DNA of 63,902 nt, the filler included, from Collodictyon triciliatum (lineage: Eukaryota): NCBI GenBank assembly GCA_043381765.1. It is 10 parts of 10 records of this genome, joined end to end, with 100 filler letters (N's around TTAATTAATTAA, not from the genome) between each part and the next. Parts side by side here need not be neighbours in the genome. Positions count along the whole stretch, not along the records: positions 46,777 to 53,354 come from JBHJMP010004366.1; 9 more parts are not named here. One strand, 5' to 3'. Both the position numbers and the translations under genes were made by a program. The notes beneath the pieces were generated by a model that was not told the DNA's origin, did no database searches, and saw nothing but the letters and a program-made list of their open reading frames with translations. Below, piece by piece: positions 6,686-60,032 of the stretch (positions are counted from its first letter, which is position 1; every line of letters begins with the position of its first letter).

Positions 6686-6899
6686 AAAACAAAAAACAAA
6701 AAAACAAAAAAACAAAAAAAACAAAAACAAAAAACAAAAAAACAAAAAAACAAAAAAAAACAAAAAAACAAAAAAACAAAAAAACAAAAAAACAATAAAC
6801 AAAAAACAAAAAAACAAAAAAATAAAAACAAAAGACAAAAAAACTACACAGATACAGCTGAGCAGAGGGTGCCATCGCATAAGATTGCTTCCCACCAAA

Positions 6900-9800
6900 A
6901 TGGAGGATGGAGCTGCACGCTTAGGAGAGCTTTGTAGCATAATCGGAGATGGTGTTGCAGTTACTCCAGAAAATTGCTCATTCTTAAATCTTCGTTGTAA
7001 GTCTTTGTCATCTGTGCCACCCGGAGTCTTTGACCTGACGCGTCTTGTTTTACTGTGGCTTTACAAAAATGAACTCTCATCGATGCCACCAGAAATATCA
7101 CGCTTGACAAACATAACAAGGCTTAATCTTCGAACAAATAAATTGCATATGCTCACATCAGAAGTGGCGCAACTTCCTAATCTTGTTGAGCTTTATCTCG
7201 GAGGAAACCAGATCAGGTCTATTTCGACTGAGCTATCGAAACTGGGGAATTTGAGACGGCTCGATCTATACTGCAACAGATTGATTTCTCTACCTTCAAG
7301 TATATCACACTTGGTAGGTCTTACCTGGCTGGATATTCAAAAAAATCAACTCTCAGTACTACCACCTGAAATATCACACTTGGCACTGCTCGTGGAATTG
7401 AATATCAGCATGAATCAGGTTTCCCCTCTTCCTCCTTTTCTTCTTCAGAAACCTTCGTTCTATTCGATACTGAACCCAAAGTTCACCCCATCTATATCTG
7501 TTTAGATCAAAGAGCTTCCACCCCAGATAACAGCACTCATCAATCTAAGGGAGCTTTGGATTGGATGTCATGAACATAGTGTGACAAAAGCACCGCGTAA
7601 AATTACAAACATTCCGTGCTGGAATAATGAGCAAATCTCGCAATATAGAATTATTCGTGAATTACAGTTCTTTGAAACTCCAGTAAGTTTTTTTTTTAAT
7701 TTTTGTGAATCATCTTTTATTTCGATAATATAATCTGATAATAGGATAATGAGATGCTAAAGCCAGAATGGACTCCAAAATCAGAGCACCTAGAGTTTCA
7801 ATCTCTTAATTTTTATGGACTGAAGCTTACTAGCCTCCCTGGAAATCTTTCTCAGCTAACAAACCTTTCAACTCTTGGCCTAAGCTATAACATGGTTACT
7901 ATCTTTGTTAAAATACACACTCAAAATGTTTCATTATTTTTTTTAAACAAAATGTAAAAGAAATTATTCAAAATAGTTTAAAACGGTTCCGGATGTTATT
8001 TCTAGCCTTACAAATCTACAGAGACTTGATATATCATACAATCAAGTAATAAATTATTTCAGTTACATTTTCTTTAAAATGAATTATATATTATCTTCCT
8101 AAATCGAAAATAATTATTCAGATAGAGAATTTGCCGACATTTATTGGGACTGTCACAACATTGAGGAGTGGACTGTTATTTCATGAAAATCCGATAAAAA
8201 ACATTCCTGAAAACGTAATAGAGCAAGGATCGGAAGCTGTTTTTGATTTCCTGGCTGCGTCAATTAATGGCATAGCTCAATGGAGACAAGGAAGAATCTT
8301 ATTACTTGGAGAAGGAGAAGCTGGAAAGACCACTCTTACCAAATCCATAATGCAACAGCACGGTGATTTGTACCCCACAGTGGATGATTCGAGGGAAAGA
8401 ACTGATGGTATTGAGCAGATTGACTTAGATATACACGATGTAACAATAGGTAGCTCAGAGAAGCCCATTTCTGTGAGAGTTTGGGATTTTGGAGGACAAG
8501 AAGAATTTCAAGTTACACACCCTTTCTTTTTCTCATATGGCGCCCTTGTCTTGATTATCTATAGGCTAGACAGATGCAAGAAAAAAAACAACCTCAGACG
8601 CTGGATGAAAATGTTGGATGATTTTGCGCCTGGTTCCAGAATCATTATTGCTGGTACCCACCGAGATTGTGAAAAAACAGAATGTTCGCATGCGATGAAT
8701 GAAGAAATAAAGTTTATCAAAAGAGATTACAGAAATCATACATTCTTTAGTACTGAGCTAAGAGTAAGCAACAAAGATGGTACAAGTATCAGAGAACTAA
8801 AGAGGGCAATATATGAAGGAATGCTGCAGCTGGAAAATATCAAAACAGGGATTCCAAAGTCTTACATTTCTTTTAAAGAATACATGGAAGCAGCAGGAAC
8901 AAACACAAAGTACGAAAATATTCGTAATACATTCGAAGCAGCAGAAAAACACCTGGGAATGGAGAGAAATGCATGTGAAAGTGCCCTAAAGTTTCTACAC
9001 GATCTTGGTTCTGTAATTTGGTACTCCTCTTTCGAGAATATCAAAGACTTTGTATTCCTGGACCCTATATTCTTAATTAACATTTTTAAATGCGTATTCA
9101 GCTTCAAAGGTATAGATAGTAGTTCAAATGGAATAGTCCTACTTTCTAGACTGAGCGAAAAAATAAAAGCTGCATTGAATATCGACTTGGATGAACTTGC
9201 TTTTGGTACAATCATTAACATATTCCAGCATTTTGGACTAGGAATTCATTTTAATAAAGAGTGCATAGCATTTCCATCTCTTATGGAGAATTGCCTTAAC
9301 ATGAATGCCTTATGGAACAATAATCCAGAGTCGAATTGTGTTGCTGAAATATCCGTAAACGTTGTGACCAAAAGTGATGTCCAACTGTCAGACAAAAGCA
9401 ACATTATAGCCCTTGCACTTCTTTTAACACAAGGATTACCCAATGGAGTTCAATATGAGGACCATTTTTTTAAGGATGTAGCCTTCATTCATTTGAAGGC
9501 AGAGTATAATGGGGTATCAAAGGACATTAAACTAACCCCCGGAAATGACCTGATAGTTTTGTTTCAAATCCATACAAATCGTGTATCTATCAAAATCAGA
9601 AAATATGAAAGTAGCTGCGAAGAAGTGGAAAGTGCCGATTCTGTTCATATATTCGATATATTATTGCATCTTGTGAAAAAGATATCATCCATTCGACCAA
9701 ACTTTGTTCATGCCTATCAATTTGAATGTCCCGATTGCCGGCTAAATGAATCAAATGGCTACATCCAAACGTCAACTAACATGGAAGACTGTGAGATGAC

Positions 9801-12589
9801 GTCTTGTTCGGAAAATCATCAACCGAACATTAGGACAGTTAAACAAGGGAGAGTATATAGAGAGGAAGGTAACATCTTTTTTATACAAAAAAAAATTATG
9901 CATTCATCATTTGAAGATTAAATTTTAGAATATTTTGATTTTTAACCTTACTTCATATTTATACATATGAAAGGTATTTCGAGAAAGTCTCAAGTGAAAA
10001 AAAGAGAAAAGATTGTTATCACACCAGAAAAAATCTTGGAGTTAACATCAATCGATAAAGAGCTTATGGATATTTGGATAAGCGAAAAAGTTGAATTAGT
10101 AGAATACATGGCCAGAGGTGCGTTCGGACGAGTATACAAAACAAAATATAAAGGAAAAGATGTTGTGGCAAAAATACAAACGATCAAGGCAACAGAAAGC
10201 CAAGGGTTATCAGAGATGATTGAATCACTTATTCTTGAAAGTAAATTTCTGAATGAATGTGATAACCATGAGAACATCGTGAAATTATATGGAGTTTATC
10301 GGGTAGATAATGATTTTTTCATGGTTATGGAAAACGCAGGAACCACTTTAAAAAAAATTGTTGAAAGAAATACAGAAAGGCTATCCCAGCACCAGATTCT
10401 TTCATTCACACGACACATATGTCATGGCCTTCTTTTCATGCAATCTATGAACCTCTTTCATGAGGATTTAAAAGCTGATAACATCATGGTTGTGAACGAA
10501 AAGGCTAAAATTGTAGATTTTGGAATCGTCAGTCGTCGTAGTCAAGATAAAGTGGGCTCTAACTTACCTACACGCTTTGGAGAAGACAAACAAGGAGGGA
10601 CAAAAAATTGGCAAGCACCCGAGATTCATGAAGTTGTTTGCAAACCATTTTATGAAGACGAAACAGTTTATGGTGAATCGTACATGAATATTGGCCATAG
10701 AGGAGAGCTGAGTAATACTTTTGCCGTAGGAATGCTAGTTTGGTATATGCTTGTAGGTATTGAGCCATTCCAAAACGAAACGCAACCACAAGGCTTCACT
10801 GTGAGAGGCTTAAGGCCTGAAATACCACAAAAAACACCATGTGAAGTCATCCATTTGATAAAATCGAGTTGGAAACAAAATTACAAACTTCGACCTAGTA
10901 TCAAGCAGATAGAGACCTATATAGATAGGTTGGTTTCTCATGAATCAACTCTATCGCAGGAAGAAATGGCCAAGTTACTTCCTATTCGATACTCAAATAT
11001 GCTAGATATGTACCGTGGCGAGTTTGTAGAATGGCTTCGCGATAATTCATTTACTAAGCTAAGTAAGAGGGTTGCTGATGAGACCTGGTTCACAGTTGAT
11101 GATAATAAAGAAAAGCTCAACGAAAATATTATGATAGGTAGGTACCACATAAGCCAGGAGGATGCCTCTAATTTTGTTCAACTATCCGAACATGCTGTTA
11201 GTACGGAAAGCTCCAACTCCCAAAAAAAAATTGTTAAAGAATTAAACCACTATCAGTTAGTGGGCTATTTACAAAAGAAAAACGATGAGTTATCAAAAAG
11301 GTTGGTCGAAAAAGTAAAGTATTTGAAACTCAACGGTGACACTATATCCAAGCTTGGAAAGTTGGAAATGAGAGAAAATTTATCTATCTCGGAGCAAGAG
11401 ATTTCCTTCGCAACTCAATGCATAAGTGATCAGATACAATTAGGCGAGCACGGAAAGCGGAGCTCTGAATTGAATGTAGATGATATACCAAAATTAAAAG
11501 AAATACAGCAACTTAATTTGCATTTCACACCATGTCGCCATGGCATTGAGGAAGCAACTTCTCTTTGGATGGGAAACATGGACTTTCAGAATATTCCCGA
11601 TTCTTTATCAATTTTAACAGGTCTTAGAAGAATTTACTTGCATTCAAATAAGGTATACTTTTTTTTTTAAGTAAAGCAAATATGGCGATCATTTCATTGG
11701 GATCTTGCGGTCAATTTCTGAATGATTTATTTAGTTTACATCGAATAAAGGGTACAAATTCTGAATTATTCTCTTAAAATGTTAATTTAATTAATATATA
11801 GCTTACATCGTTTCCTCAGCCTTGTCTTGTGTTGACTAATCTGATATCTCTGGACATATCGAACAACATGGTGGTTAATTATTTTTTTGTTTGAATTCAA
11901 GAGTATATTTGTTTTTTGTTTTTTGTTTTTTGTTTTTTGTTTTTTGTTTTTTTACTTTCGATTTTTTCTTTACAGATTTCATATTTGCCTCCTGAGATAT
12001 CACATTTGAATGCACTCTCACGTTTGGTCGTTCATGAAAATCCTGTAAGTCATTTCCCATAGCATAAATATTTTGTTGTCAAGTCAATCATTTCTAATGA
12101 CATTAAATATTCAGATACAGATATCTTCCACAGGATTTCATATGACATCGTTGGTCGGTTGCCCCATAATCATGCATGATACAGAGCATGAATTAATTGA
12201 GGCAGGCCCCATGAACGAACAAAATGATGCGTCAAGTGAAGAAGGCAAGCAAAGGGAGCCCATAGAATCAATTTCTATCGGCGAATCAACCAATTCAGAT
12301 CACGAAATTTCTGTACTATCACCAGAAGACCATGTCAGTTATTATTATTATTATTATTATTATTCCTTTCATTTTGCACCATGTTTTTTTTTTTTTTTAA
12401 AAAAAAAGTCGAATTATCGATTGAGAGCACGTTTAATGGAATGGCTGAAAATACCACCTAAATTTACCGCAGGTATTCGATAGTGTCGCGTCTGCAGCTT
12501 CATCTGACGGCTCCAAATGGATGAAAAATACATCGAAAGAGACGAAGAAAAAATCTGGAAGGAGAAAAAAAAAGTGCAATATCAGCTAA
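6900..12589 (+). CDS. Roco family protein: LRR-Roc-COR-kinase, then further LRRs and a polybasic CaaX tail; multi-exon
   Basis: LRRs at 6900-8120; Roc GEGEAGKT, WDFGGQEEF, GTHRD; COR (LKFLHDLGSVIWY..VFLDP); kinase RGAFGRV, HEDLKADN, DFG, WQAPE; phase-compatible GT-AG introns link the ORFs through to ...KKKCNIS*. Confidence 0.88.
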
Positions 12590-13533: not shown

Positions 13534-15928
13534 GTGCAAACTCTGGTCATAAGGTTATCAGAAAAACTCCTGAACTGCGCCGAGTGCAAGAAATGTGCGT
13601 CCGCTCCGCACTTACTCTCATGCGGACATACCATTTGCTTTGGCTGCATACCCAGTGCTGAAAAAGTTTCGTCAGATATGTTTCACGAGCTCCAAAGCTT
13701 GATTTCTTGTCGCCAGTGCAGGCAACCCACGTTGTTGAATCCAATACTTGAGGACTATCTGCCGTACGCCTACCTGCACGAGAGGCTGTCTGTTGCAGAA
13801 GCTGTTTGCGAAAGCAGAAAAAAGATGCCTTGTGTTGGGTGCTCAAGTGCTTCGGCATTCTATTGCGAATCGGGATGCGGTTCCTTGTGCGTTGTGTGCC
13901 TAGAGAAACACAAATATTTTGAGACAGACTATCCGCACAATGTAGTGTAAGTAAAGGGACTCCTTTTATTGAACCATAATCCAAACTATTAGGAAAGAAA
14001 TTGTATGAGAGTTTATTTAATCACAATAAAATAGCCCATATTTCAACCGATTTCCCAGCGAAACTGAATTCTGTATTACATCCAATTCACGTCATTCGCA
14101 TCCCAGTGAAACAGCACCATTCGAAGATGCAGAATATGCTTGGATATTACAACATTGTCCGAAGCATAACGAGTGTAAGATTGAATGGGCATGCTCATGC
14201 TGTCCTTCGAATCCTTACAAGTGCTCTGCATGTCTGGAAGTTGATAGAATTGCTGGTGATACTCACCTAAATGCTCCTTTGGACAGCGCTGTCAATGGGT
14301 TTATAAAGGAACTCCGTAATTCTATGTCACTTGCTCATTCAAAATTAATTGAAATCGAGAACCTGAGAAGACCGATTGAAAAGCATATACTATCGGTAAT
14401 GAAAACAGACATCGATTAATTGAATCATGAAAAATTAATCTTATTGTGGCTATCACCCAGTATGAATAAATTACCATATGTAACTTCGTTTCCTTGTTTT
14501 AGATAGAAGATGTTTTTTGGGTGAAGTTGAAGAAAATACAGGAGCGCTTTGACTTGTATCACAAGTATCTTCATGAAATGGAAGAGGAAGTCAAAGCAGA
14601 GGTTTTGTACCTTCCAATACCATAGATACAATTGACACTCCATATCTGAACCAGACCCTACACTCGTAATTTCTTTCTAATAATTGATAAATATTGATTG
14701 GTGATTTTTTGAAATAATTAATTACATACCCACTCACAAAAAAAAAAAAAATTGATGAAAGGCTCGAAACTTATGTAATTCTCTCCTGGAGGAAAATCGT
14801 CAGACTGTACAAAAACTAAAAGACTCTGAATGTAATCTCAAGGCATCTATGTGTGCTTGTCAGGAAGCTCTTGAGCTACACAAAAAGTACAACAGTCCGA
14901 TAATGATACCGCCTGTGATAGATTTAATCAATTCTGCAGTCCGGGCAGTATCTTCCTACGAATCGGTTGATATGCCTCAATATACATTCACCGAACATTT
15001 CTTAGATATCATCGTAGTAAGAGCAGAGTATTCCCGATTAGAAGGACACACCAGATGGATACAAGCTCATAAGGAGCCCAAATTAATTCGTGATGTTATG
15101 ACCATAAACAAAGAAATTCGTTCCGTCCGCATATTGCAAGAAACTTCACCAACAACAGCCATCGACGCATTTCAAAATAATAGTATTATTTGCGTCAGTG
15201 GATTTGCAGTAGACCCCAAAAACGGCAGCATATTTCTTACAGATGTCAACCACGGTCTTGTCTATGTCTTTGATTGCGACCTCTATCCCGTTTCAACATT
15301 TGGTGGACGTGGCAACGGACCTGGGGAGCTTACAAACCCCATATCTGTAGCTGTATCACGCGACGGAAGAATCGGGGTTGTAGACTATGGGAATAATCGA
15401 ATTCAAGTGTACGACAGGAACATGGAATGCCCAAAGACGTTGGAGCAGAAGTCTTTGAGAGTAGGCCCGCAGTTTATGATACCAAGGCACATGGTTTTCG
15501 ATTCGATGGGAAACGCCTTCGTCGCTGATTGTGAACTGGTGTCTATCCATAAATGGGATTTGGATGGAAACATGGTCTGCTCCTTTGGTGCCAAGAAAGA
15601 AAACTCTATACAAAGCTTAATGGTAAATGAATCAAATGAGATAATGGCTCTTCGTTACAGCAGTGATGTGGTTGAGTGTTTTTCTAACGATGGTGACTGG
15701 ATTCGCAATATCCCAATCCGAAAGGTCTGTAATATCAGTTTTATCTCACCGAGCGCAGATGGTGGGTTTGTTGTGACAGATTCAGGGGGCGATTGTATTT
15801 TGTTCTATTCAAGGGATGGGACACTCCTCAAATTTATCACAATCCAGAGTCCAATAGGCGCAATTTTTGGACCTTCTGGGGCTTTGTACGTAGTAGCCTC
15901 GAACCCTCAAAGGATTTTCGTTTATTAA
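13534..15928 (+). CDS. RING + two B-box-like domains + coiled coil + NHL beta-propeller (TRIM-NHL-like E3 ligase); multi-exon, 5' end uncertain
   Basis: CAEC..LSCGHTICFGC..CRQC RING; CVGC..YCESGCGSLCVVCLEKH and CPKH..CSCC..CSAC B-box-like segments; NHL repeats such as FGGRGNGPGELTNPISVAV..VVDYGNNRIQVY. Confidence 0.8.
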
Positions 15929-45145: not shown

Positions 45146-46776
45146 GAGGGTGTTAAATTCAGTGCTTCTGGATGTTATTCTTGTTGCTCTGATTGTTTTT
45201 TTGGAGTTTCCTTTATTTGATTCAAAGTATTGTTGTTTGGAGTTGTTTTCATTGGCGCGTTTGTTGCATCCCTTTCTTTTCTGTTCTCGTTGCTGAGTGT
45301 GAGACACGTAATTGTGTGTCAACGCCGATTGGTGGTTACGACACGTGACGTCACAATGATGCCGATGAAGGTGGTTCGTTTTTGTTCCAATTTTGGCCTG
45401 GCTGATAGGTTGTGGGTTGTCGTCACGAAAGAATAAGGTACGGTATAAGTTTAGGGTGTTGGATGGTGGAATCCGCATCTCGTTCGACTGTTCCATGAAC
45501 TAAAAAAAAGAAAGATTGATGAAGGATAATATTCATATGGGTTCTACACTGTTCATATCAACTTTTCAAACTCGATTTTCATGATTTCTGTAAAAAGATA
45601 ATTGGCATGATTCTCGATGTTACGAATATGTTTCTTTTTTAGTTCAAAAAGGCTCCTTTCAATCTAGAAAAGGGTCAGTATGAAACTTTTGAAAAAAAAC
45701 TCTTCATCTGGTTCAAGAGAAGGAAGAATTTTTCGATTTTTTCTACAGCCCGGCCTAACTGTATGTAACTTTTGCATATGCCCTGATAGATTTTGCATCC
45801 ACGCACCGGCCCTGATATATGACAATTTTTGTTTAAATTGCTCCTAGATATTAATTGGGCATGGAGAAACGGGGTTGGTCTTCGTTATGCACTCTAACAG
45901 GAAAGAGGTGGGTACCATGCGAAAAGTTCTTTTGAGAATCAACCCCGTGGATGTATGTCAAACAAAGACAATTAGCTGAAGATAACTCAAGTATCTGCAG
46001 AAGCATTGAAGATACTTGTGTCTCTAGATAATTCAAGCTAATTTTCGCATCTATGTGCGTTTGAGTGTCATGTTACGGACATAACTGGCCCCCTCAACCC
46101 ATAGATTCCAGGGCACTGCATGCGAACGTCGTAGTAATTTTTATAATTGTTAGGTATTCTCACCCTGTGACGGCCTGCGAAAGCGAAAGCAAATAACCCC
46201 ACTTTCCGATATATCTCTTGTGGAATTTACTATAATAATATCAATTGATGTATTTCTACCCTATATTACCATAACCAAGTATACATAATCCTTCAATATA
46301 ATACATATAATTATAAGTGCCCTCTTTAGTCGTTCCCAGAAGGACTTCGTCTTGTTTTCGTCCCATTTTGCTCGCTCAGATCAAACTGGCGGCAGACATA
46401 TAATTGTGTGTATATTTAAGGCTCCACTAGTGTGCGTGAACCAACAGGGAACAAAGCGATGGTCAAGCTTTACACACACCGGTCATCTACTCACCACGGA
46501 CACGGCTAATCAGCAAAGTACGTCGAAAGCTGATATTTTTTTAATCACCCCGACAGGGCGCGTGCTTTCGCACTTGCTATTTTGTTTTTGTTTTTGTTTT
46601 TGTTTTTGTTTTTGTTTTTGTTTTTGTTTTTGTTTTTGTTTTTGTTTTTGTTTTTGTTTTTGTTTTTGTTTTTGTTNNNNNNNNNNNNNNNNNNNNNNNN
46701 NNNNNNNNNNNNNNNNNNNNTTAATTAATTAANNNNNNNNNNNNNNNNNNNNNNNNNNNNNNNNNNNNNNNNNNNN

Positions 46777-48398
46777 TATTCAATAATATCGTCAAATCTA
46801 ACATTAGAATTAAAAGTATTATAAATTAAATCAGTATCAACATAAGAAGAAAATAAAGTGTTGACATCTCGATAATGTATTACATCATTACCTGTAAATA
46901 CAAACATTTTAGTTACAGGATTATAATAACTAGCATTTCCGGCTGCTGTAAATGTTAATGGTACATATGACCAATTAATACCATCTCTCGATACTGCCAT
47001 ATTATTATTTGTCTGTTCCGCGGATGCTATAAAAAAACCACCAAAATCATTAACCCAATTAATACATTGTGCAATAAATGGTAATGTTCCAGGTGAATGC
47101 CAATTAATACCATCTTTCGATATCATAAACGGTCCGTCCGCGGTGTTTGGTGATGTAGTAAATATACCTAATTTAGGACTCCATTCTACAGCCCTTAAAG
47201 GACCATCAACTGTTACTGCTGTAAAAAAATTAGTTAAACCTGTTGGTAAAGATGTACCATTATAATAAAATATTCTTGAACTAGTTCTAGATACTATTAC
47301 ATATCGTTGTAATTGTGGAGAATATGTTATATCAGATAAAAAATTATCAGTTGTATTAGTAATATTACCTTCAGTCCAAGTTAACATATCCGTGGAAATT
47401 TTAACACGTGATTCAATATCAAGTGTTATAAATTGACCATTTATAAATTCTATTTTTTGTACTTGTCTTGCATTTTGCCATGTCTGTGAGTTAACAACTT
47501 GCGTCCAACCTGTTTTAGCTGTTACGTCTGTGGTATAATATAATCGTCGTGCTTGGTTAGATGCTGAAACACAAGCCCATATATTATTACCAAAAGCTAC
47601 AGAGACCACTTGATTCATATTAATAATAGTATTTGTTAATTCTGTCCATGTAGTTAAATTATTAGGTTCTGAAATAAATAATCGCTGATGTCCTGATGTG
47701 GAACTATTACTACATATTACATAAACACCATTTGATGTATTACATGCTATATCTAACAATCTTGATGCTGAGCCTATAGGGTCTAAACCTGTACTAACTG
47801 TAGGTGTTAATATTAATGAATAATTGGGAGTATAAGCATTAAAATTACTAGGACCATTTACATTAACTGTTTTCATATTTGTATTATTAGAAGTATTTAA
47901 ACCAATATTAAAATTAGTTCTTGTTAATTCTGTTGATAAAATACCATTTACAATAGCCCATAATCGGGGATCTGTTGCGGCATTTGTTTGCTCGCCTGCA
48001 TATCCTGTATTAGTAGATTGAAAATTAAAATTTAAACCGGGAACTGTTGAAGATTGTGAACCATTATTACAATTAACGCGATTATAATATATTGATTGGT
48101 TAACATTCATTTCTTGAAGTAATGCGCCACCGATATTAAATCTTAATCTATCAATACCACTAGAAAATTCATATGATAAACCAGTATCGGCACCACTTAC
48201 AGATTTAAAGGAATAAGAGGGTAATAATGAAGTACCATCGCCCGCGTAAAAATTATTTGCTGATATTGTGCTGCTTGATAATTGATCTGACCAATTAACA
48301 AATAGACCGTTATTATCTATTTTTAATATTTTATTGGCATCAGTTGTTGTAAAGCTTGGTAAATCATTATTTGAATCTGATTGCTCGTAATATGACAT
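46777..48398 (-). CDS. Putative fibre/spike protein with a beta-propeller region, 3' truncated
   Basis: Tail-fibre-like GDGTSLLPSYSF..DTGL repeat; propeller blades VAFGNNIW, ITYSPQL, VEWSPKLG; Asp-box-like SKDGINW and SRDGINW. Confidence 0.65.
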
Positions 48399-48430
48399 AT
48401 ATATAATATATTTATATATTTTTATTTATT

Positions 48431-49168
48431 TTAAAATGCAATTACTTTTAATGTGAAATTAAAATCAATGTTATAATCTGTATTACTTATAGCTCTACCA
48501 TTTGGATATATTAATCTAAAATTCCATTGATATGGTATAACATCACAACTTAAATAATTTATTTCTGTTAATTCTTGGTATACATGACTGTTTCTATTTG
48601 TTAATAATGATATTTTAAATAATATATTATTACCTTGTATATTAGCCGAATTATTAGAACTATTTAAATTATTACTAACTAAATATACATAACTATAAGG
48701 CCTTAGATTTAATTGAAATGGTAAATATGAATTACTCGTAGATGTTGAATAATCAACAGAAAACCCTAAAACATCTTTAATGGTTGATGATGATTTTAAT
48801 ATAATATTACTTGATGAATTACCTTTAACAACTGTTAATTTATTATTTTTTTCATCATAACCCCATGATAAAGAATTACCAGTAAAAGTAATAGCATTTA
48901 AAACAACTAATAATTCATTTACTTTATATGTAGCATCTGATATATATATAACTCTATCTGTCGCACCTTCTAATATGTGAAGTTCATTATTAGTTGAATT
49001 AATTTGATAAAATGATGTTGATATATTTATTGATTTTAACCCAACTAAACCGCTATTTTTATTACCTTTATTTTTTGTATTTGTAATTATAGTAAAGTCA
49101 GTAGGTGTTCCATTGTTTCGAAATGCTGAATCAACATATAAATAATATTCATCGGTTTCTTTATTCAT
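48431..49168 (-). CDS. Putative minor capsid (penton) protein
   Basis: N-terminal YVDSAFR..DF, beta-rich, C-terminal FNFTLKV; typical of PLV single-jelly-roll pentons; homologous to 55524..56291. Confidence 0.75.
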   Translation of the reverse strand: MNKETDEYYLYVDSAFRNNGTPTDFTIITNTKNKGNKNSGLVGLKSINISTSFYQINSTNNELHILEGATDRVIYISDATYKVNELLVVLNAITFTGNSLSWGYDEKNNKLTVVKGNSSSNIILKSSSTIKDVLGFSVDYSTSTSNSYLPFQLNLRPYSYVYLVSNNLNSSNNSANIQGNNILFKISLLTNRNSHVYQELTEINYLSCDVIPYQWNFRLIYPNGRAISNTDYNIDFNFTLKVIAF

Positions 49169-49215
49169 ATATAAATATGTTATATAAAATTTTTTTATAT
49201 TTTATTAATATATAT

Positions 49216-49575
49216 ATGGAAGAAATACAAAAAGAAGAAATAAAAGAAGACACAATAGAAAAACCAAAAAAACAAAAAAAACAAATTTCAGAAAGACAAG
49301 CGGAAGCATTAAGACTCAATAGATTAAAGGCAACAGAAAAAACGAAAGAGAACGCACAATTAGTTAAAACAATTAAACAATATAATTTAATGCCTGCTTT
49401 AGCGCCTAAAAATAATAATATAGATGAATTAAAAAATGAATTAAAATATATTCGGGACTTTGTTGATGAAACTAAAAAACGAAAAGAAGAGAAGAAAAAA
49501 GCAAAAGAACTAGTAGAAAAAGATGAATATTATAACTATATCAATAATGTAAATAATGATATTTTTTTTAGATAA
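49216..49575 (+). CDS. Small basic coiled-coil protein conserved in both viral elements
   Basis: Start re-assigned to ATG 49216 after a TATATA run; SERQAEAL..KATE..KTIKQY aligns with 56326..56673. Confidence 0.75.
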   Translation: MEEIQKEEIKEDTIEKPKKQKKQISERQAEALRLNRLKATEKTKENAQLVKTIKQYNLMPALAPKNNNIDELKNELKYIRDFVDETKKRKEEKKKAKELVEKDEYYNYINNVNNDIFFR

Positions 49576-49584
49576 CTATTATAT

Positions 49585-50298
49585 ATGGATATACAAAAAA
49601 TAAATGATATTGAAATAAAACCAATAACAAAAGTAAAGAAAAAAAATAAAGTTATACCTGACCCATTATGTGACCCTCACGCTGAAAGACCATTTTTATA
49701 TATTATATCATCAAAAACAGGAAGCGGAAAAAGTGTATTAATTAGTAATATATTAAAGAATATATATTATCATTATTTTAATAATGTTTATTTCTGTTCT
49801 TCAAATGTTGATAATGGAATGATATATGATGTAGCATATGATAAAGTTAAAATATCAGATAAAAGAATATTTGATACTTTTAATGAAGAAATAATGGAAT
49901 ACATAGTTAATGATATAAGAAGCGATGAAGATTTTGAAGATAGCCAATATTTATTAATAATAGATGATTTACCGACAGAATTAAATAAAAGAACATCGCG
50001 AATAGTAAAGCATTTTTTAAAACATCGACATATACATTTATCTATTATTATTGTCACTCAGAAATTAAATTTATTAAATACTGCTATTCGTGGAAATGCT
50101 ACACATTTAATATCATTCTTTACAAATAATAAAAAAGAAAGAGAGACAATGACAGAAATGACAGATAATGATAATTTTTTAAAATATTTAGATTATGCCA
50201 CACAAGAACCTTATAATTTTTTATTTGTTGATTTATTAAAAAATCCCGCTAAATTTTATAAAAATTTTAACTTTGAGCTTAAAATAAATGATAATTAA
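49585..50298 (+). CDS. A32-like (FtsK/HerA superfamily) DNA packaging ATPase
   Basis: Walker A KTGSGKS, Walker B LLIIDD, A32-type RH..SIIIVTQ, IRGNA. Confidence 0.9.
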   Translation: MDIQKINDIEIKPITKVKKKNKVIPDPLCDPHAERPFLYIISSKTGSGKSVLISNILKNIYYHYFNNVYFCSSNVDNGMIYDVAYDKVKISDKRIFDTFNEEIMEYIVNDIRSDEDFEDSQYLLIIDDLPTELNKRTSRIVKHFLKHRHIHLSIIIVTQKLNLLNTAIRGNATHLISFFTNNKKERETMTEMTDNDNFLKYLDYATQEPYNFLFVDLLKNPAKFYKNFNFELKINDN

Positions 50299-50933
50299 TT
50301 ATTAAAAACTGAATTATATATTATTGGTAATTCATTTTTAAATATATCTTTTATTTTTTCCGCTATTAATCTATGTTCTTTTTGTGTGTGTTCATCTAAT
50401 CTAACATTTAAATAATGTATCCATGACCTTATATTACCATTCATATATATTCTTGATAGTTCATTCACTCCTAAAATTACCCTCGCGCTTTCACATGCTA
50501 CATTATCACTTATCATCTTATTATATAATTCGTTTATTTGTGAATATATTTTATAATATTCTTGTTTATATTCATCATTTTTAGGATGTGTTAAAAATGA
50601 TGATTGCCTATTTGTATTATGTTTTATTCTAAAATCCGGCTCAATAATATCACTAGATAATTTATTTTTATTTTGGTATCTCATAGAAAACATTTGAAAA
50701 CTAAAGCTTTTATGTCTTATAATCTGCGTTATAATATATAATGGTGCCGTTATTTCAATACACATATTACTCATTTCAAATATTGACCAATGACTATTTT
50801 TAATACAATAATTTATTAGTTTTGTATCTAGACTATCTGGATTACTAGATGATACACGGGCACATTTTAATATAATATTTTCAGCATTTGGTGTAACCCA
50901 TATTAAATTAACTTCATAATTAAATAATGACAT
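50295..50933 (-). CDS. thyX: FAD-dependent thymidylate synthase
   Basis: HWSIFE, QIIRHKSFSFQMFSMRY (ThyX motif), ESARVIL, RSWIHY..R..TQKEHR. Confidence 0.93.
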   Translation of the reverse strand: MSLFNYEVNLIWVTPNAENIILKCARVSSSNPDSLDTKLINYCIKNSHWSIFEMSNMCIEITAPLYIITQIIRHKSFSFQMFSMRYQNKNKLSSDIIEPDFRIKHNTNRQSSFLTHPKNDEYKQEYYKIYSQINELYNKMISDNVACESARVILGVNELSRIYMNGNIRSWIHYLNVRLDEHTQKEHRLIAEKIKDIFKNELPIIYNSVFNN

Positions 50934-50944
50934 TAATATAATTA

Positions 50945-51304
50945 TTATATATATTTTATAAAATAATTATAATTAACACGGTTAGGTATTAAAAATATTA
51001 TTTTATTGTATATTTCATTATTTGAGCATTTTATATCAACATTTTTTAAATATGGAACACATAATAAATCTAATAATATTTTATTATATTCTTCTTTATA
51101 ATAACAACATATAATATTTATTTCTGTTATTAAATGTAAAGGTATTTTTTTATTATAAAACTTTAAATTATAATCTAAAGGTAATATAATATTATTATCA
51201 TTAAATGATATTATTATTTCTATTGTTTCATCCATCATATATATTGTCATATATGAATTTGTATAATCAAGACTATCAAAATTATTATATAACACTCTAG
51301 GCAT
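50945..51304 (-). CDS. Hypothetical viral protein (119 aa)
   Basis: Open ORF in very AT-rich DNA, ending 11 bp upstream of the thyX start on the same strand. Confidence 0.55.
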   Translation of the reverse strand: MPRVLYNNFDSLDYTNSYMTIYMMDETIEIIISFNDNNIILPLDYNLKFYNKKIPLHLITEINIICCYYKEEYNKILLDLLCVPYLKNVDIKCSNNEIYNKIIFLIPNRVNYNYFIKYI

Positions 51305-51315
51305 AATAAAATATT

Positions 51316-51350
51316 TTTATAAAATAATTTTTAAAAAATTATTTTATAAA
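51316..51350. promoter_or_regulatory. 35-bp perfect AT palindrome (17-bp arms, 1-nt centre) between divergent genes
   Basis: TTTATAAAATAATTTTT-A-AAAAATTATTTTATAAA; function inferred only. Confidence 0.5.
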
Positions 51351-51377
51351 TTAATTATATATAGAATTATTTATTTA

Positions 51378-51761
51378 ATGAATAATTTAATTTATAATAA
51401 TATGCAAATGACAAAGTTAAGAAATGATATCCATAATATTATTAAAGATCTTAATTTAATATATCATAATATTCAAATGAATTTAAATAAAGAAAACGAA
51501 CTTTATAATAATAATAATAATGTTATTGATAGAACTATACATGAAAACACGCCGGAAATTAAAATAAAGACAAAGATAAATAATTTGTCTTTACAACTAG
51601 AAAATAAAATAGATGATCCATTTATTAAAAAAGAATTACCTAAAGAATTAAAAAAAAGAGGAAGAAAAAAGAAAGTAATTATAATAGATGAAGACACTAA
51701 TAATATATTAAAAGACAGTAAATATGAATTACTTATTGACGAAGGAATTATTAATACTTAA
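51378..51761 (+). CDS. Hypothetical viral protein with a KKRGRKKK basic (AT-hook/NLS-like) motif
   Basis: ORF track; N-terminal coiled-coil-like segment. Confidence 0.55.
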   Translation: MNNLIYNNMQMTKLRNDIHNIIKDLNLIYHNIQMNLNKENELYNNNNNVIDRTIHENTPEIKIKTKINNLSLQLENKIDDPFIKKELPKELKKRGRKKKVIIIDEDTNNILKDSKYELLIDEGIINT

Positions 51762-51980
51762 TGAATTTTCAAAATTTAAATAATGTTTTTTATTTTTTAA
51801 ATGTCTTGATTTATTAGATAAATCATAATCTTTATTACAATATTCACAATGAAATTTTTTATTTTTTGTTACTAACTGATAATAATTAATAAAATAACCT
51901 TCTTCTTTTATTTTGTTATTATATTTTTGTTTTGATGTTAATTTTATTTCATTAAATAAATCTTTATTATCAACATTCAT
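51729..51980 (-). CDS. Small C2H2 zinc-finger protein
   Basis: FHCEYC-x11-HLKNKKH. Confidence 0.75.
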   Translation of the reverse strand: MNVDNKDLFNEIKLTSKQKYNNKIKEEGYFINYYQLVTKNKKFHCEYCNKDYDLSNKSRHLKNKKHYLNFENSLSINNSFVNK

Positions 51981-52015
51981 AATAAATATATATACTATTA
52001 TATATATTTATTTCT

Positions 52016-53260
52016 TTAAGTTAATTTAATATTAACGAATTTTTCCCCTTCATATTTAAAATCTCCTATGTTGTCACTTATTGATAAATAATCATCTAAT
52101 GGAATTTTTGAATATAAACTGTCAGTATGAACATATACTATATTATTAATAATAGGGTTTAATATTTTTGTAAAATGTTTTCTTGAAGAACTATATAAAA
52201 AAGGTTTCATTCTTGGTAATGCGCCCTTATAAAAAAATGACTTATTATATAATGTTACTTCATATCCCCCACTATTCATTGGTTCAATTTTAAAATCTTT
52301 ATTATCATATATTATAAATTCCTCATCGCTTTTTATTTTTTTAACTACTTTATCAGATTCAACCAAAGCACCAAATAATATATTTAATAGATCTTTAATA
52401 ATATATTTTTGTTTAATGTTTTTCTTTTTTAAATTATATAAATATGTCACGTATTCATTAAATATGTCTGAACTATTAATACAATCTTTATTATCATATA
52501 TCAAAGCGTTATATTCTTCATCCATATTTAATTTAAATTTAAACCCTAGCTTATGAGCTTCTAATATATCAGTATGTGTATAAGTATCATTTTTATTTTG
52601 TTTAAATATTCCCGGTTTAAAATTAGAGATAGAACCTTTATAAATACCAATACTTATATTATTATAATCTATATCATCATCATTTAATTTATAAAATTTA
52701 CCTTCTTTAACTGGTATTTTAATATTTAATTGTGATAATACAAAAGGATAAAAGCTGTTTATATCATATGTATAAACTTTACCTGAATATTCTTTTTTAT
52801 ATTGAATGGCACCTAATACTGAATCTTCTAAAAAATTAACTTCTAGTTCTGATTTAACCGGTGATATTATTTTATATAGATCTTTATTAAAATCAAAAAA
52901 TAATTTAATAGCTAAGTTCTTAACTGAAGGATTAATAAATAAATTAATAGTTTCATTAGTAATTTTTTTTAATTCTATAGCATCATTATAAATTTGTTTA
53001 TGACAATCAATAATATTAATATGTTTATCCTCTTCTTTACAATATGAACAATATGAACACTTACTAACAATATTATATTGTGTTTTTCCTGCCATTGAAT
53101 CACTTATTAGCTTACGTCCTTTTATTAAATCTTCTTCAACTATAAACTTTTTATTACTTACTAAAAATAATACTTTATTATCTACAAATTCATAAAATAA
53201 TATTTCTTTCTCTTTATATAAGTTAATGCCATTTAAATAAATGTTTGTTTTACAATCCAT
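52016..53260 (-). CDS. Minimal family B DNA polymerase-like protein (pPolB-related)
   Basis: Motif A YDINSFYP, motif B KDLLNILFG, YSSSR, motif C variant YVHTDS, IGDFKYE; only 414 aa, with no recognisable Exo I-III motifs. Confidence 0.8.
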   Translation of the reverse strand: MDCKTNIYLNGINLYKEKEILFYEFVDNKVLFLVSNKKFIVEEDLIKGRKLISDSMAGKTQYNIVSKCSYCSYCKEEDKHINIIDCHKQIYNDAIELKKITNETINLFINPSVKNLAIKLFFDFNKDLYKIISPVKSELEVNFLEDSVLGAIQYKKEYSGKVYTYDINSFYPFVLSQLNIKIPVKEGKFYKLNDDDIDYNNISIGIYKGSISNFKPGIFKQNKNDTYTHTDILEAHKLGFKFKLNMDEEYNALIYDNKDCINSSDIFNEYVTYLYNLKKKNIKQKYIIKDLLNILFGALVESDKVVKKIKSDEEFIIYDNKDFKIEPMNSGGYEVTLYNKSFFYKGALPRMKPFLYSSSRKHFTKILNPIINNIVYVHTDSLYSKIPLDDYLSISDNIGDFKYEGEKFVNIKLT

Positions 53261-53454
53261 AATATATAATAAAATATAAAAATATTTCTTTAAGTCATTT
53301 TCAATTTATTATTTAAAATTTATATTTTAAAATCGCCCCTTCCTTCCCTCCATTNNNNNNNNNNNNNNNNNNNNNNNNNNNNNNNNNNNNNNNNNNNNTT
53401 AATTAATTAANNNNNNNNNNNNNNNNNNNNNNNNNNNNNNNNNNNNNNNNNNNN

Positions 53455-55508
53455 CACTTGTTTAATGTTTTTTGACACATAATTGTCCAGCATGACCCAA
53501 TTGGAATATTTTTAGATTCGCCAGCATTGAAAGCTGTTTGTGTGCCATCGGACCACAAATTTACACTATCTGAAGTAAATTCTACTTGAGCAAAAGCACT
53601 TGCGAACCCACCCTGGTCAAGGTGTATAATTTTAATAGTCCATCCATCTGGAATACTAGCAGTATTTGCAGACGGAAGCAATAATTTTGCGGTTACAGTG
53701 TGTTGCTGAGGACGACTAATAAAATATATCGGAGGACTATTAGTACCGAGAGTTATAATTCCTGACGTGTTATGGTTCGCATAATCTTGGATTGGGCATT
53801 TTGTTTGTTCAATATGTTTCTCAAATTCGGATCTATCAGGTCTAAAAATTACATTCCGACTCGTATTGACAGTAATACTTACAAAAAATTGTGAGCTCTC
53901 TGTCCCACCTCTGATGCAATTTGTTAACGAAGAAACAGTACCAAACCTAACTTCCTGCCCCGAAGGTAATTCTACACGAGTCGCCTCAACAGTTCCACCC
54001 ACGGTTAGATTATTTGTGATCGATGCGCTACCCGAAGAACTGAACCCGGTAGCTGTAACCGTCCCTGGAAAAGTTGCATTGCTTGCCATCCAATGTGAAT
54101 TAATGTACCAGATATTATTATGAAATGTACAGTGAAGAGATGCGCGTGTTGATACATCGACTGTCGTAGTAAAATTATTTGTTAGCCCTCCTTGATAAAC
54201 TCGTAAAGTAACACCCGCAATTGGCGTTAATTGAAGAACAGCGCCTGATAAATTGCTATTCGGCACAATATAAAATGACATTCCATTTGTAAAGCCAGAG
54301 CTAAGAAATCTTAATACCACAGGTGTAAAACCCCCCATATCAACTATAACATTGTTACTAAATGTTGCGCCCAGGTCGAAAGTTTGAGCGTTGGCAGTTA
54401 CAGTAATTACATTGGTTGGTTGAATGATCTGTTGAGATAACGTTAAATTTCCCGTAAGATTTGCGCCCGTATTATTTATATTCAGTCTTTCTACACCATT
54501 AGTTCCAATAAATATATTGTTGTCCGTGCCCCACAATCCACTGGGTGTTGTTGTGTCATTAAATAACAGAGACGGGGCAGCTGCCGATCCTGCTGTTGTA
54601 AGATTTAACTGTCCTGCTATGTTATTTGTTCCTGTGCCTTGTACAATTAAATTTGATGTAATTGTTAAATTACCAATGACTCCGTTTTTATCTGTACCGT
54701 GACGTATAATTAACCAGCTTGTTAAACTTGCAAAATACACACATTGGTAAATATAGCCAATTGTAATAATAACAGCTGGAGGTATTGTTCCACTGCCTGT
54801 ATTGGGAATTACATTCCTTGCACCATCATAATAAGTTTCCATACTAATGGATGTACTACTTGTAGTAAGCGTACAAGTGAATGTTCCGCCAGAAGCAAAT
54901 GGATTAAACCAAAATTGTGTCCCATTTGCTAAAGCTGGTAATGTATATGTTACATTATTATTTGTATAATTGATGCGTTGAAAAGTCGGATCGCTTTGAA
55001 CCACTGTTCTACTAGTACCAAATGAAGTAAAGGTGAAACAAAGTCCATTATTTATTACTAATGGAACAGACATAGTACTACCATTAGAATCCCACGTCTG
55101 TCTTGCAACATTTCCAGTAATTATTCCCATTACATTGGTCGATGAAAGCCCATAAAGGCCCGTATTGCTGGCACCAATTCTTAACCCCGAACCGCTTCCA
55201 GATCCAGTTCGAATAATATCTATAGTTGGGTTGTCAGTAAATGTATATGTACCGGCACCTGTTGAATTTAGAATTTGACCTGTAGCTGATGGAGTCGGGA
55301 CCTGGTTCACTACAGCCCACGACGGCACTGACCCGTTCGTCGTCAGAAAACGTCCAGCATTCCCCGTTTGACTAGGCAGCTCAGCCGGTGCTACTGTTTC
55401 CTGCAGCCACTGTAAATAAAGCCCACTTGAATCTACTTTCAAAATTTTGTTTGCGTCTGTATTGGAAAATTCCGGTAGTTCCTTTTCTTCTGTTATGAAA
55501 AAACCCAT
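53455..55508 (-). CDS. Putative fibre/spike protein, 3' truncated
   Basis: Thr/Gly/Ser/Asn-rich; tail-fibre-like motifs LPSQTGNAGRFLTTNGSVPSW and GSAAAPSLLF; N-terminus shared with the element A fibre. Confidence 0.65.
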
Positions 55509-57402: not shown

Positions 57403-57888
57403 ATCAAATAAATTTGTCTGAACTAATATGTTCAAACTAATTATTAATGACACTACTTATGAATTTGAATCGTGGGAGGACCTGCAGGTTTTTCTGTATT
57501 CTCTGGAAAAAGCAAACAAGAAGAAGCAAAAGAAAAAGGTACTGGACGCAATATATAAAGTCGTGACCTATGATTCATTTCGCATTGTCTTTGAATGAAA
57601 GCCGGCCCCCTCCAACAATTTTCCGCCTCTAAATTCATTTAATTGATGTTGAGGTTGATGGTTAGTGGCTAAGAATTTTTCCTGCCCAAATCCTTTATAT
57701 ATTCTTCTTTTTTTTATTTTAAAATTTTAAAATTTTAAAAAAATAAAATAGAAAAATATAGGCGATTGGAGCCCGGGGTTTTTGCCTCCAGCTCCACCAT
57801 ACCGATCATCAAGCGGAGGCGGAAAGTTGTTGGAGGGGAGAGATTTTTTTTAAAATGTTGGCTTAAAACTATCCCCATATATAAGATT

Positions 57889-60032
57889 ATGAACGCAACA
57901 ATGGATCTCAAGACATTTATTGAAAAGCAAAACATCCCATATGCCTTTGCCTGGTATATGAAAACATCTGAAGGCGAAAAGATGACAGTTATTGAAAACA
58001 GTAATTGTAAGTTGGATGAATTAGAAAAGTGGAGGGACCAATCACGCAGTATGTTCAAGGACTATTGTTATGTCCTGAAACGAAATTTAAGAAAGGAAGA
58101 AAAGAAAGACTGTCAAAGAGTTTTTTCTTTGTTTTTAAAACACGACCCGAGTCTAGTGTGTATAGACTGTGACGATAAAAATATCCAAGACCCAGATGAA
58201 CTGGGTAAAGCTTTGGGTATTCCTGCAATCAATAATTCAATGTGTTGGACCAAGGGCAACACGAAAGGATTTCACATATATGTGCGAGATCCAAATTTTA
58301 ATAGAAGGTATGAGGGCATTAAAGTATTTGGCCCGGAGATTCCTGTTGATATCATCAAGTACGTAAGAAATGTTTGGGAAGACGAAAACAAGATTATTTA
58401 TAATGCAGAGTGCATTACAGAATTGAATTTATCGGAAATATTAATTCAAAAGAAACGCAAGGTTCACATTGAGGAATCAACTGAGGAATCAGCTAACGAA
58501 TCTGAACCAAAGTTGCCAAAACTTGGACTGGAGCAAAAAGAATTTCAGTCTGACTTCCACAGACAATGTTTTGTCGAATTCATGTTACAGAAGGCAGTTC
58601 TTAATCAATATTTTGCCAATATGCAAGGTGACTATGCTCAGTGGATAAAGATAGGTTACGCTCTAATTCACGAAAACATTTCATGTATAGACACTTACTG
58701 GTTAATAATTAGTCAGCAACTGCCCGACGACAAGCAATCTACCAACTTGGATAAATTACAGACTCTACGGGAATTACAAAGAAATGTAGAAATGAAAGTT
58801 TGCACAAAAGCTGTTTCTTACAAATACATTTTACAATTAATCAAAGACAGCCAACCACAAGTTGTATTTTCAAATTTTATGACTGATGTACAGGGGGGTC
58901 ACGTAGCACATTACCGGGAGCAGTATTATAAAAAAACAAAAGAAGAATTTGAAGCCAATCATTTTCAGTTCTATGGCAAAACAGTGCTTGTGATGGAGAA
59001 TTTCTCACTCAAGTTTTACAATCCATCTGACGCCAAGTTGCAGTATGCGCATTTGAATTTTTCTTTTCAAAAAGTTCATTTTAATTTCATGAATACATGG
59101 GTGGAAGACAAGAACAAGAGACAAATCACAAAATTAGTTTTGCGTCCTGACTGGCCCAAGAAATTAGAGTGCCCAAAAACCTACAATACATTTCAGGGAT
59201 ATGAGATTGAGAAAGTAGGAGATATTCGCCAATTGTTAAATAAGGAGGAGGAATTAGATTACAAAGAAAACAATCACATTCATCAGCTGATTGCCAAGTT
59301 GAGCAATTACAATTTCAAGGTGATGGAGGAGATAATTCAGTGGGTTGCGCATCTGATATTTGCACCGCAAGATATGGGTAGATTCCACACGGCGATGGTA
59401 TTTTATTCCCAGACAGAGGGCACAGGTAAGTCTTTGTTTACGCAAGATTTGTTATTGAAAAAAATTATTGGAACATGTTATGGAACAAAGACATCGAAGA
59501 TGGACGACTTGTTTGGAACCTTTAATGATATACTTGAAAACAAAGTTTATGTATTATTGGAGGAAGGTAAGAGAAAAGACGGGGTTGAATTTTCTGATGT
59601 TATGAAAGATTCTTTGGTTTCAGATACATTGGTGATTCATAAAAAAGGTTGCGACCGATATACAACTAATAATTGTGTGCATCTGATTATAAACACAAAC
59701 AATGAGACGGTTGTATCTGTGGACAATTCAAACAGAAGATATTTTTTGATTCACACAGACGAAAACAAATTATCAGTAAATGAAATTTTATTGAAAAAGG
59801 TTTTGGAAGATATATCAAGTCCTGATAAATGTTTACAGTTTGTGAGATATCTTTACACTAAATTTGATCCGAGTTGGAATAGTGAAAAATACATTGTGAA
59901 TGAGCAGGTTGAGCATGAGCATTTCAAAACTCATTTACAAGACCAGATTTCACAGACTGACCAGTTTTTATTAATTGCTTGTGAGGACGATGAAGTACGA
60001 ATTCAACACAAGTTAACTGATTCATTGAAAGG
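57889..60032 (+). CDS. D5-like primase-helicase (AEP/prim-pol + PriCT-2-like + SF3 helicase), 3' truncated
   Basis: CIDCD and KGFHIY primase motifs; YAQWIKIGYAL; Walker A EGTGKS, Walker B VLLEE, motif C IINTNN; first ATG at 57889. Confidence 0.88.

Follow-up and report, generated by a model that had tools for sequence, protein, structure and literature searches.

A short mavirus-type DNA polymerase gene in the Collodictyon triciliatum assembly, probably the catalytic half of a split terminal protein and polymerase module

The polymerase gene and its contig

The stretch of DNA analysed here, referred to as the window, comprises 63,902 nucleotides (nt) of the genome assembly of the eukaryote Collodictyon triciliatum (GenBank GCA_043381765.1) and contains a 414-amino-acid (aa) open reading frame (ORF), the query of this study, that encodes a protein resembling family B DNA polymerases of the protein-primed type (pPolBs) and related to the polymerase of the mavirus virophage. 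The 63.9-kb window consists of some ten distinct contigs, each ~6.58 kb long, set in a chain rather than forming one molecule, and joined by spacers of the form N44-TTAATTAATTAA-N44 that recur with a period of about 6.68 kb and span positions 6586-60132; the ORFs that cross these spacers (e.g., 46725..48398 and 53403..55508) are artefacts, that is cut genes read through N. The polymerase ORF lies on the contig at positions 46777-53354, hereafter element A, which is very AT-rich, with 15-25% GC between 48400 and 53600. An earlier note on this DNA had placed the ORF fully inside its contig; the ORF is complete, but the contig ends just 94 nt upstream of the start codon, so that the neighbouring genes on that side are hidden. 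The features of element A are collected in Table 1.

Table 1. Features of the polymerase ORF and of the other genes on element A (positions along the window; TP, terminal protein)
Feature	Position	Strand	Basis and remarks
pPolB-type polymerase ORF, 414 aa, ATG start	52016..53260	minus	ORF listing, Pfam PF03175, AlphaFold2 model, structural matches
Motif A YDINSFYP, predicted catalytic D166	52745-52768	minus	D166 in 154/154 aligned proteins
Motif B KDLLNILFG, K289 and G297	52370-52396	minus	K289 and G297 in 154/154; F296 of the query is W in the family
Motif C YVHTDS, H378/T379/D380	52118-52135	minus	D380 in 152/153, T379 in 148/153, H378 in 136/153
Putative exonuclease-domain remnant, residues ~17-100	52961..53212	minus	Structural counterpart of the beginning of the phi29 exonuclease domain
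Cys/His cluster CSYCSYC..H..CH, CSYCSYCKEEDKHINIIDCH, residues 68-87	53000-53059	minus	Translation; lineage-specific insertion
Frame of 13 codons running in from the contig end to a stop, NGGKEGAILKYKF	53313..53354	minus	Candidate 3' end of a cut TP gene
Small Cys/His protein, 83 aa, directly downstream of the polymerase	51729..51980	minus	Weak zinc-finger matches only, E 0.05-0.1
ThyX flavin-dependent thymidylate synthase, beside the packaging ATPase	50295..50933	minus	Pfam Thy1, E 4.8e-40
A32-type packaging ATPase	49585..50298	plus	Pfam Pox_A32, E 4.7e-11; 48% identical to the element B ATPase
Penton-like (minor capsid-like) protein, 245 aa, name inferred	48431..49168	minus	34% identical to a 255-aa ORF of element B, E 4e-35
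Fibre-like protein, truncated C-terminally where the contig stops (spacer 46733-46776)	46777..48398	minus	ORF listing; no Pfam or PHROG match

Sequence motifs and predicted fold

The three polymerase motifs that the earlier note had read in the ORF are confirmed by translation (Table 1), and the ORF matches the Pfam family PF03175 (DNA_pol_B_2; E 3.4e-9, 36.5 bits against a cut-off of 25.8, residues 34-307). No other Pfam family matches the ORF and, in particular, a C-terminal superfamily 1 helicase domain is absent, while among the PHROG profiles a weak match to PHROG 11768, annotated as DNA polymerase, is obtained (E 1.7e-4). The AlphaFold2 model, computed from 105 aligned sequences, has a predicted local distance difference test score (pLDDT) of 91.5 and a predicted template modelling score (pTM) of 0.89, and its best match among solved structures is the phi29 DNA polymerase (Foldseek E 7.3e-11; VIA Z 20.4, root-mean-square deviation 4.3, 338 residues aligned), one of the enzymes with which the earlier note had proposed to compare it. 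Since Pfam, PHROG and a confident phi29-like model agree, the match of the ORF to DNA polymerases is more than chance. The best of the RNA-primed family B polymerases (PolBs) aligns with the model at Z 9.6 over 244 residues, and the fold is thus nearer to the protein-primed phi29 type. Sequence searches of the PDB with the single protein or with the profile of a first family alignment (A1) retrieved nothing relevant; no close relatives were found with the single protein in IMG/VR and the JGI metagenome contigs, and none by tblastn in the phage collection.

Residues 17-414 of the model correspond to residues 5-499 of phi29 polymerase, and the part of the phi29 enzyme after residue ~499 has no counterpart. 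The ORF ends 34 residues past D380, and its end falls at the position of the KxY motif of phi29 (K498 and Y500). The last model residue pairs with phi29 residues 497-499, so that the KxY motif and the thumb subdomain are absent, as the earlier note had claimed. Two strand-rich segments of the AlphaFold2 model, residues 181-262 and 304-339, lie at the positions of the terminal protein regions TPR1 and TPR2, an assignment that is indirect; the second of them agrees with the insertion at the TPR2 position described before. According to the model, the ORF is predicted to retain the fingers, a palm that carries both TPR-position insertions and a non-functional vestige of the exonuclease, with neither a proofreading site nor a thumb.

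The N-terminal part had been described as devoid of exonuclease motifs, and this holds: among the positions kept in at least 80% of the 154 aligned proteins, none of the acidic residues of Exo I-III is genuinely conserved before E140. The apparent conservation of D2 is probably an artefact, due to MAFFT pairing the MDC of the query with the NDC motif of the viral OTU (vOTU) protease domain of its relatives, because other short forms of the polymerase begin at the equivalent boundary without it; a vOTU vestige at the query N-terminus was rejected on this ground. The structural alignment of the N-terminal part to the start of the phi29 exonuclease persists, with ~100 residues of the phi29 exonuclease region unmatched in the model. 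As far as the model goes, this part is what is left of an exonuclease domain that no longer functions, and no new domain has to be assumed.

The Cys/His cluster reported in the same region is present, but it is an insertion relative to the homologues, restricted to the close cluster of the query and not conserved family-wide, and it is poorly modelled (block 71-80, pLDDT ~60). The reading of the cluster as a zinc finger characteristic of the family is unsupported, since more distant members lack it. Among the seven variants described below it is unchanged, with no variable column between residues 67 and 89, and it might bind a metal in the lineage of the query.

The mavirus-type polymerase family

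A word-based search retrieved seven homologues of 29-37% identity, mostly of 567-663 aa and all ending soon after motif C, and when 1.84 billion cluster representatives were searched with a profile, 3259 of them matched at E<=1e-3 and 1248 at E<=1e-30. Typical relatives have ~600-650 aa, and the profile stops at the C-termini of the proteins. Only two of the eight members of alignment A1 reach PF03175 at E<=0.1, which indicates that the family is divergent. Conservation was counted in an alignment of 154 proteins, mostly representatives of clusters at 50% identity. The Asp of motif A and the second Asp of motif C, considered by the earlier note to be the catalytic pair, are indeed kept (Table 1). 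By contrast, the features that it had regarded as special to this ORF are common property: position 378 is occupied by His in most of the family (N in 7 and Q in 4 of 153 proteins), the HTD[GS] form of motif C is family-wide, and among the 143 of 154 proteins that match the motif C pattern used, the tail behind it has a median length of 41 aa (26-72 aa). The loss of the thumb is likewise common to the whole family and not peculiar to the query.

The top viral match of the model is the polymerase of the mavirus virophage (A0A1L4BK92, 617 aa; E 1.8e-24, TMq 0.75, 423 columns). In two publications, the mavirus PolB is described as a terminal protein (TP)-vOTU-PALM protein that lacks both an exonuclease and motif C's first Asp, the latter like several PolBs that are counted as active (PMC11161782), and such enzymes are named "palm-retaining truncated pPolBs," one group of them being tied to superfamily 3 helicases (S3H) of the DUF5906 type (PMC13215967); a separate S3H helicase is encoded by mavirus as well (PMC11161782). 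The ORF thus belongs to the described family of mavirus-type pPolBs, and the loss of the exonuclease and the His of motif C are already in print. As for the missing thumb of these enzymes, no discussion was found in print, and the word "thumb" does not occur in PMC11161782.

The gene appears to be maintained. The cluster of the query at 90% identity has seven members (412-414 aa, 92-100% identical) from Logan, NCBI, JGI/IMG and ENA, on contigs of up to 14.3 kb, another being of 9.3 kb. These seven variants differ from the query by at most 32 residues, one group of them with an in-frame deletion of 2 aa, yet the ORF is complete in every one. They vary at 47 columns, and the 56 positions conserved in the family include none of these, against 6.4 expected (hypergeometric P 7e-4). 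Words of the contig occur in 20 sequencing runs of 10 studies, all freshwater, sediment, riverine or aquaculture metagenomes, with shares of up to 0.66. No RNA run is among those listed for the contig words, which is uninformative on expression.

Split arrangement of terminal protein and polymerase in the relatives

Compared with the family, the query lacks ~200-250 N-terminal residues, and neither a TP nor a vOTU profile matches the ORF, whereas of the 166 proteins collected 148 have both domains. For a fused relative (L017) the N-terminal region was modelled with a pLDDT of 93.2 and matches the N-terminus of the mavirus polymerase at E 2e-13. Its second half resembles OTU domains (4boz_A, Z 6.4; 3by4_A, Z 6.3; several viral OTUs), which make up most of the top matches, and Cys125 and His202 in this vOTU-like half are invariant. 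The first half (residues 6-111) lacks a clear match among solved structures (best Z ~5.5, mixed folds), so the label "TP" rests on its position, on the match to the mavirus N-terminus and on published analysis.

For the arrangement of these domains, 40 related loci (3 from IMG/VR and 37 of 338 pattern matches in metagenome contigs) were scanned with profiles of four segments and with a profile of stand-alone TP ORFs. A short polymerase without vOTU, of ~392-413 aa where complete and with one copy that reads longer, was found in 16 of the 40 loci, and every one of the 16 has a TP-like ORF immediately upstream, which measures 111-143 aa in the complete copies examined and is truncated at a contig end in three loci. 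Eight of these 16 TP-like ORFs belong to the training set of the profile; the other eight are detected at E<=2e-6, three of them in near-copies of training loci. Clustering the polymerases at 90% identity sorts the 40 loci into 28 groups, 27 of which are assessable and one is not: nine have a short polymerase and a TP gene, two a TP gene and a vOTU-polymerase, 12 are fully fused, and four have a vOTU-polymerase whose N-terminal part is beyond the reach of the TP profile. In the nine short-form groups the polymerase begins at the same domain boundary. In the literature searched, the split form consisting of a PALM-only polymerase and a free TP without vOTU was not found, although the supplements of PMC11161782 and PMC13215967 may show it.

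The stand-alone TPs (L001 3542-3910, L018 2259-2627 and others) nearly all start with MP(P/K)K, next to which comes a basic tail, and have a short hydrophobic strand at the end; Y102 (L001 numbering) is the sole invariant residue in their alignment and a candidate priming residue. In one fused relative, L034, the polymerase frame is interrupted, with two adjacent ORFs (4409-5782 and 5786-6220) that together cover the profile end to end; the interruption is a stop or a frameshift, or else a sequencing error.

Gene neighbourhoods

The ORFs flanking the polymerase were scanned with Pfam in 21 loci of 19 groups (12 ORFs of L001, 86 of 103 others, with the 17 of L030, a near-copy of L027, left out, and 19 more). 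A helicase gene is located near the polymerase in 14 of the 19 groups, namely a DUF5906-type S3H in 11, a Prim-Pol fusion in two and a Herpes_ori_bp-like helicase in one; the earlier note had proposed to test for co-occurring helicases. A helicase is not seen in the other five scanned groups, four of which have little upstream DNA. All four short-form groups with enough upstream DNA (L001, L013, the L018 group and L035/L040) carry the DUF5906 S3H upstream of the polymerase, farther away than the TP gene. An rve integrase is often encoded between the helicase and the polymerase genes, and several related loci have a double jelly-roll (DJR) or Sputnik-type capsid gene together with an A32 ATPase, which identifies the loci as polinton-like viruses and virophages.

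In L020 (577-3174) and L027 (2947-5520), as well as in L030, a Prim-Pol fusion of ~860 aa and a vOTU-pPolB are encoded on the same contig; L027 carries Sputnik-type capsid genes, and the three loci are virophage-like, with two replicase types per element.

Downstream of the polymerase, element A encodes the small Cys/His protein, two small ORFs of unknown nature, ThyX, the A32 ATPase and the penton-like and fibre-like proteins (Table 1). The 83-aa Cys/His protein has no significant similarity to the small zinc-finger-like ORFs of L018 and L001. The 245-aa penton-like protein, which has no Pfam or PHROG match, is weakly similar (E 0.01) to a 257-aa ORF of L001 situated before the DJR capsid gene there, and the N-terminus of the fibre-like protein resembles, by eye only, that of an ORF of element B. 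A sharp GC shift occurs inside element A, from ~30% in the fibre-like gene (46800-48400) to the lower values of the remainder.

Element B, the contig at 53455-60032, has 35-44% GC and comes from a polinton-like virus. Its genes follow the same order as those of element A (fibre-like, penton-like, small basic protein, A32 ATPase), and its replication gene, at 57766-60032, encodes a protein of >755 aa with a DUF5906 S3H domain that is cut by the contig end. The difference in replication between the two elements, noticed before, is thus real insofar as different replication genes stand beside related capsid modules. What is not supported is its explanation as the substitution of one primase for another; judged from the gene content, the two elements represent a swap of the replication module and not of a primase function. 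A replicase exchange of this kind is described in bioRxiv 10.64898/2026.10.13.758929. Genes of eukaryotic type are present on several of the remaining contigs of the window (Roc-COR GTPase, protein kinase, leucine-rich repeat and NHL repeat proteins; 8131-11670, 6885-7505, 14849-15928), which indicates that the assembly is a mixture of eukaryotic and virus-like contigs.

Interpretation and alternative explanations

On the grounds of the fold, of the family conservation and of the TP gene and S3H found upstream in the short-form relatives, the ORF is probably the catalytic half of a split, protein-primed module of TP and polymerase, belonging to a polinton-like virus or virophage and working together with an S3H helicase. 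The lineage of the query would have lost the vOTU protease, and its TP would be encoded by a separate small gene lying upstream, past the contig end. A candidate for the 3' end of this gene is the fragment of 13 codons at the edge of element A: its stop lies 52 nt before the polymerase ATG, as compared to the ~45-65 nt that separate the end of the TP genes of L001 and L018 from the polymerase start, and its hydrophobic ending resembles in style the ends of the TPs of the relatives, 13 residues being too few for statistics. In the mechanism proposed, the free TP would supply the hydroxyl group from which DNA synthesis starts at the ends of the genome, D166 and D380 would bind the catalytic metals and K289 the incoming deoxynucleotide (dNTP), while the helicase encoded upstream would unwind the DNA and make up for the lost thumb and processivity ring. 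The enzyme is probably non-proofreading and, on its own, poorly processive, in line with part of what the earlier note had proposed.

Several observations weigh against this interpretation. In the window no ORF matches either TP profile better than E 0.1, the upstream region being cut 94 nt from the ATG, and on element A no helicase gene is visible, its upstream side lying past the contig end; the upstream TP gene is accordingly deduced from the relatives and from the 13-codon fragment. The small ORFs of the window that were considered as TP candidates (119, 127, 83 and 117 aa) have no TP profile match, and the profile scan found no vOTU-like or second polymerase-like ORF elsewhere in the window. 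An alternative is that the query lineage lost TP and vOTU independently, without acquiring a separate TP gene. The query also departs from the family at near-invariant positions (G103E, K109I, G111P, W296F, A349P), and the family profile of the exonuclease remnant ("exorem") does not match its N-terminal segment at E<=1, which marks this segment as divergent. No biochemical assay of any family member was found in the literature consulted, and we know of no experimentally studied precedent for a polymerase without thumb and KxY. The activity of the mavirus enzyme is itself stated only in passing in PMC11161782.

Phylogeny bears on the same question. A FastTree phylogeny was built from 109 rows, namely the query, one half of the representatives and those loci whose polymerase ORF could be used, after removal of near-duplicates and short fragments. 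It places the query and a cluster mate in a 12-row group made of short forms only (support 92), with the second split form (L007/L008) arising elsewhere. A quick IQ-TREE search on 49 rows recovers nine other short forms as a clade (SH-aLRT 94) and, to the detriment of the interpretation just given, leaves the query in an unresolved position apart from them, on a long branch of 1.25-1.48 changes per column. A tree constrained to hold all 11 short forms together has a log-likelihood 34.8 above that of the free quick tree (p-AU 0.88). A single origin of the short forms, query included, would thus be the best tree found and is not rejected, with the caveat that the short-form group was named after viewing the FastTree tree and that long-branch attraction could favour the constrained tree.

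Other explanations of the ORF have to be weighed against the catalytic half of a split module. The fold might be that of an inactivated polymerase, reused as a structural or DNA-binding factor or as a partner of the integrase at the genome ends, with DNA synthesis left to the helper giant virus or to the host. The His in place of the first Asp of motif C and the lack of KxY, thumb and exonuclease site would fit such a role, as would the dependence of virophages on giant-virus replication factories (PMC11161782), and a related palm domain, that of Tlr1-like helicases, was once published as "inactivated" (title of a reference in PMC13215967). This proposal, however, was withdrawn by its own authors, several PolBs without that Asp being active (PMC11161782). 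The residues that serve only catalysis, moreover, are kept in all aligned proteins (D166 and K289) or in all but one (D380), and the family is accompanied by a TP domain and a helicase, as expected of a replication module; we consider reuse of a dead fold unlikely. Another reading, that of the earlier note, is an enzyme devoted to initiation only, a de novo primase or an initiator of TP priming, non-processive and replacing the archaeo-eukaryotic primase (AEP), with elongation entrusted to another polymerase. The loss of the thumb should indeed cut processivity, judging from the architecture of phi29 polymerase, element B has a large S3H-domain protein instead beside its related capsid module, and priming de novo is a property of the pipolin PolBs, in which the first motif C Asp is likewise missing (PMC11161782). 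But the flanks of the 21 scanned loci contain no second DNA polymerase except the Prim-Pol fusions of L020 and L027, where Prim-Pol co-occurs with a polymerase of this family, so that the two are not alternatives to each other; the TP domain or gene of the relatives points to protein priming and not to de novo synthesis, and the KTRG motif that defines the pipolin enzymes would fall past the end of the ORF. The replacement of an AEP primase by an initiator is for these reasons improbable.

The ORF could also be a decaying relic, an N-terminally truncated remainder of a TP-vOTU-PALM gene in a dead endogenous element, in an assembly that also holds eukaryotic genes. The earlier note had taken much longer homologues as a sign of such truncation. 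Homologues are in fact longer, typically by the ~200-250 residues mentioned above, but their additional length consists of TP and vOTU at the N-terminus and does not belong to the polymerase core, and intact short forms are found repeatedly, with the same start boundary in nine groups and a TP gene always upstream. The divergence of the query at some conserved positions would suit a relic; the seven variants, on the other hand, keep the full ORF and spare the conserved positions, and the contig words recur in the metagenomes of 10 studies. Given these intact variants, the invariant catalytic residues and the metagenome spread, a relic is very improbable.

If the ORF is the catalytic half of a split module, a further step can be envisaged, whose chances we put at about even: a mavirus-type lineage would have reverted to a phage-like set of two genes, a free TP and a polymerase of ~395-415 aa, discarding the vOTU that normally cuts the two apart and relying on the S3H helicase. 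Should this be true, the query would represent that lineage in freshwater habitats as one of its divergent and AT-rich members. The lack of an exonuclease, the His of motif C and the compactness of the protein are known mavirus-type traits, by which the query adds a member to the family and not a new kind of enzyme. The pairs of TP and short polymerase without vOTU, observed in nine of the 27 assessable groups, would instead extend the TP-vOTU-PALM scheme and the account of TP detachment. With a core of ~330 residues and neither thumb nor exonuclease, the short forms may offer a natural minimal system for protein-primed synthesis by family B enzymes and for its compensation by a helicase; if active, they would rank with the smallest known DNA polymerases of family B, reliant on the S3H helicase for unwinding and processivity.

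Comparison with known systems

The closest described system is the pPolB of mavirus, a "palm-retaining truncated pPolB" of pMVRE group 1 (PMC13215967), with which the query shares the exonuclease remnant, the loss of the first Asp of motif C and the preservation of motifs A and B. As in the mavirus type (PMC13215967), genes for an S3H of the DUF5906 family and for an rve integrase stand beside the polymerase in the relatives of the query. The query differs from the mavirus enzyme in having neither TP nor vOTU domain, with 22% sequence identity to the mavirus model, and its short-form relatives encode the TP as a separate upstream gene, the vOTU being gone. With phi29 polymerase the query has in common the order of motifs A, B and C and the insertions at the TPR1 and TPR2 positions, and a separate TP gene exists in phi29 as in the relatives of the query. 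The phi29 enzyme, however, has an active exonuclease, KxY and thumb, none of which is found in the query, and it needs no helicase (PMC11161782), whereas the short-form relatives have the S3H.

A TP encoded apart from the pPolB is also known in adenoviruses and in a coral polinton (PMC11161782). These retain the vOTU, inactive in adenoviruses and active in the coral polinton, together with a full exonuclease, while the short forms have neither. The pPolB-S1H fusions (Tlr1-like), found in polinton-like viruses and transpovirons, resemble the query in having a palm without exonuclease and a changed first Asp of motif C (PMC11161782). They differ from it by a C-terminal superfamily 1 helicase, the query stopping at residue 414 and its relatives using a separate S3H gene. 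In the piPolB of pipolins the exonuclease is preserved and KTRG replaces KxY, whereas the query lacks the exonuclease motifs and any sequence at the KTRG/KxY position. What the two share is the membership in the pPolB clade and a motif C from which the first Asp is missing (PMC11161782).

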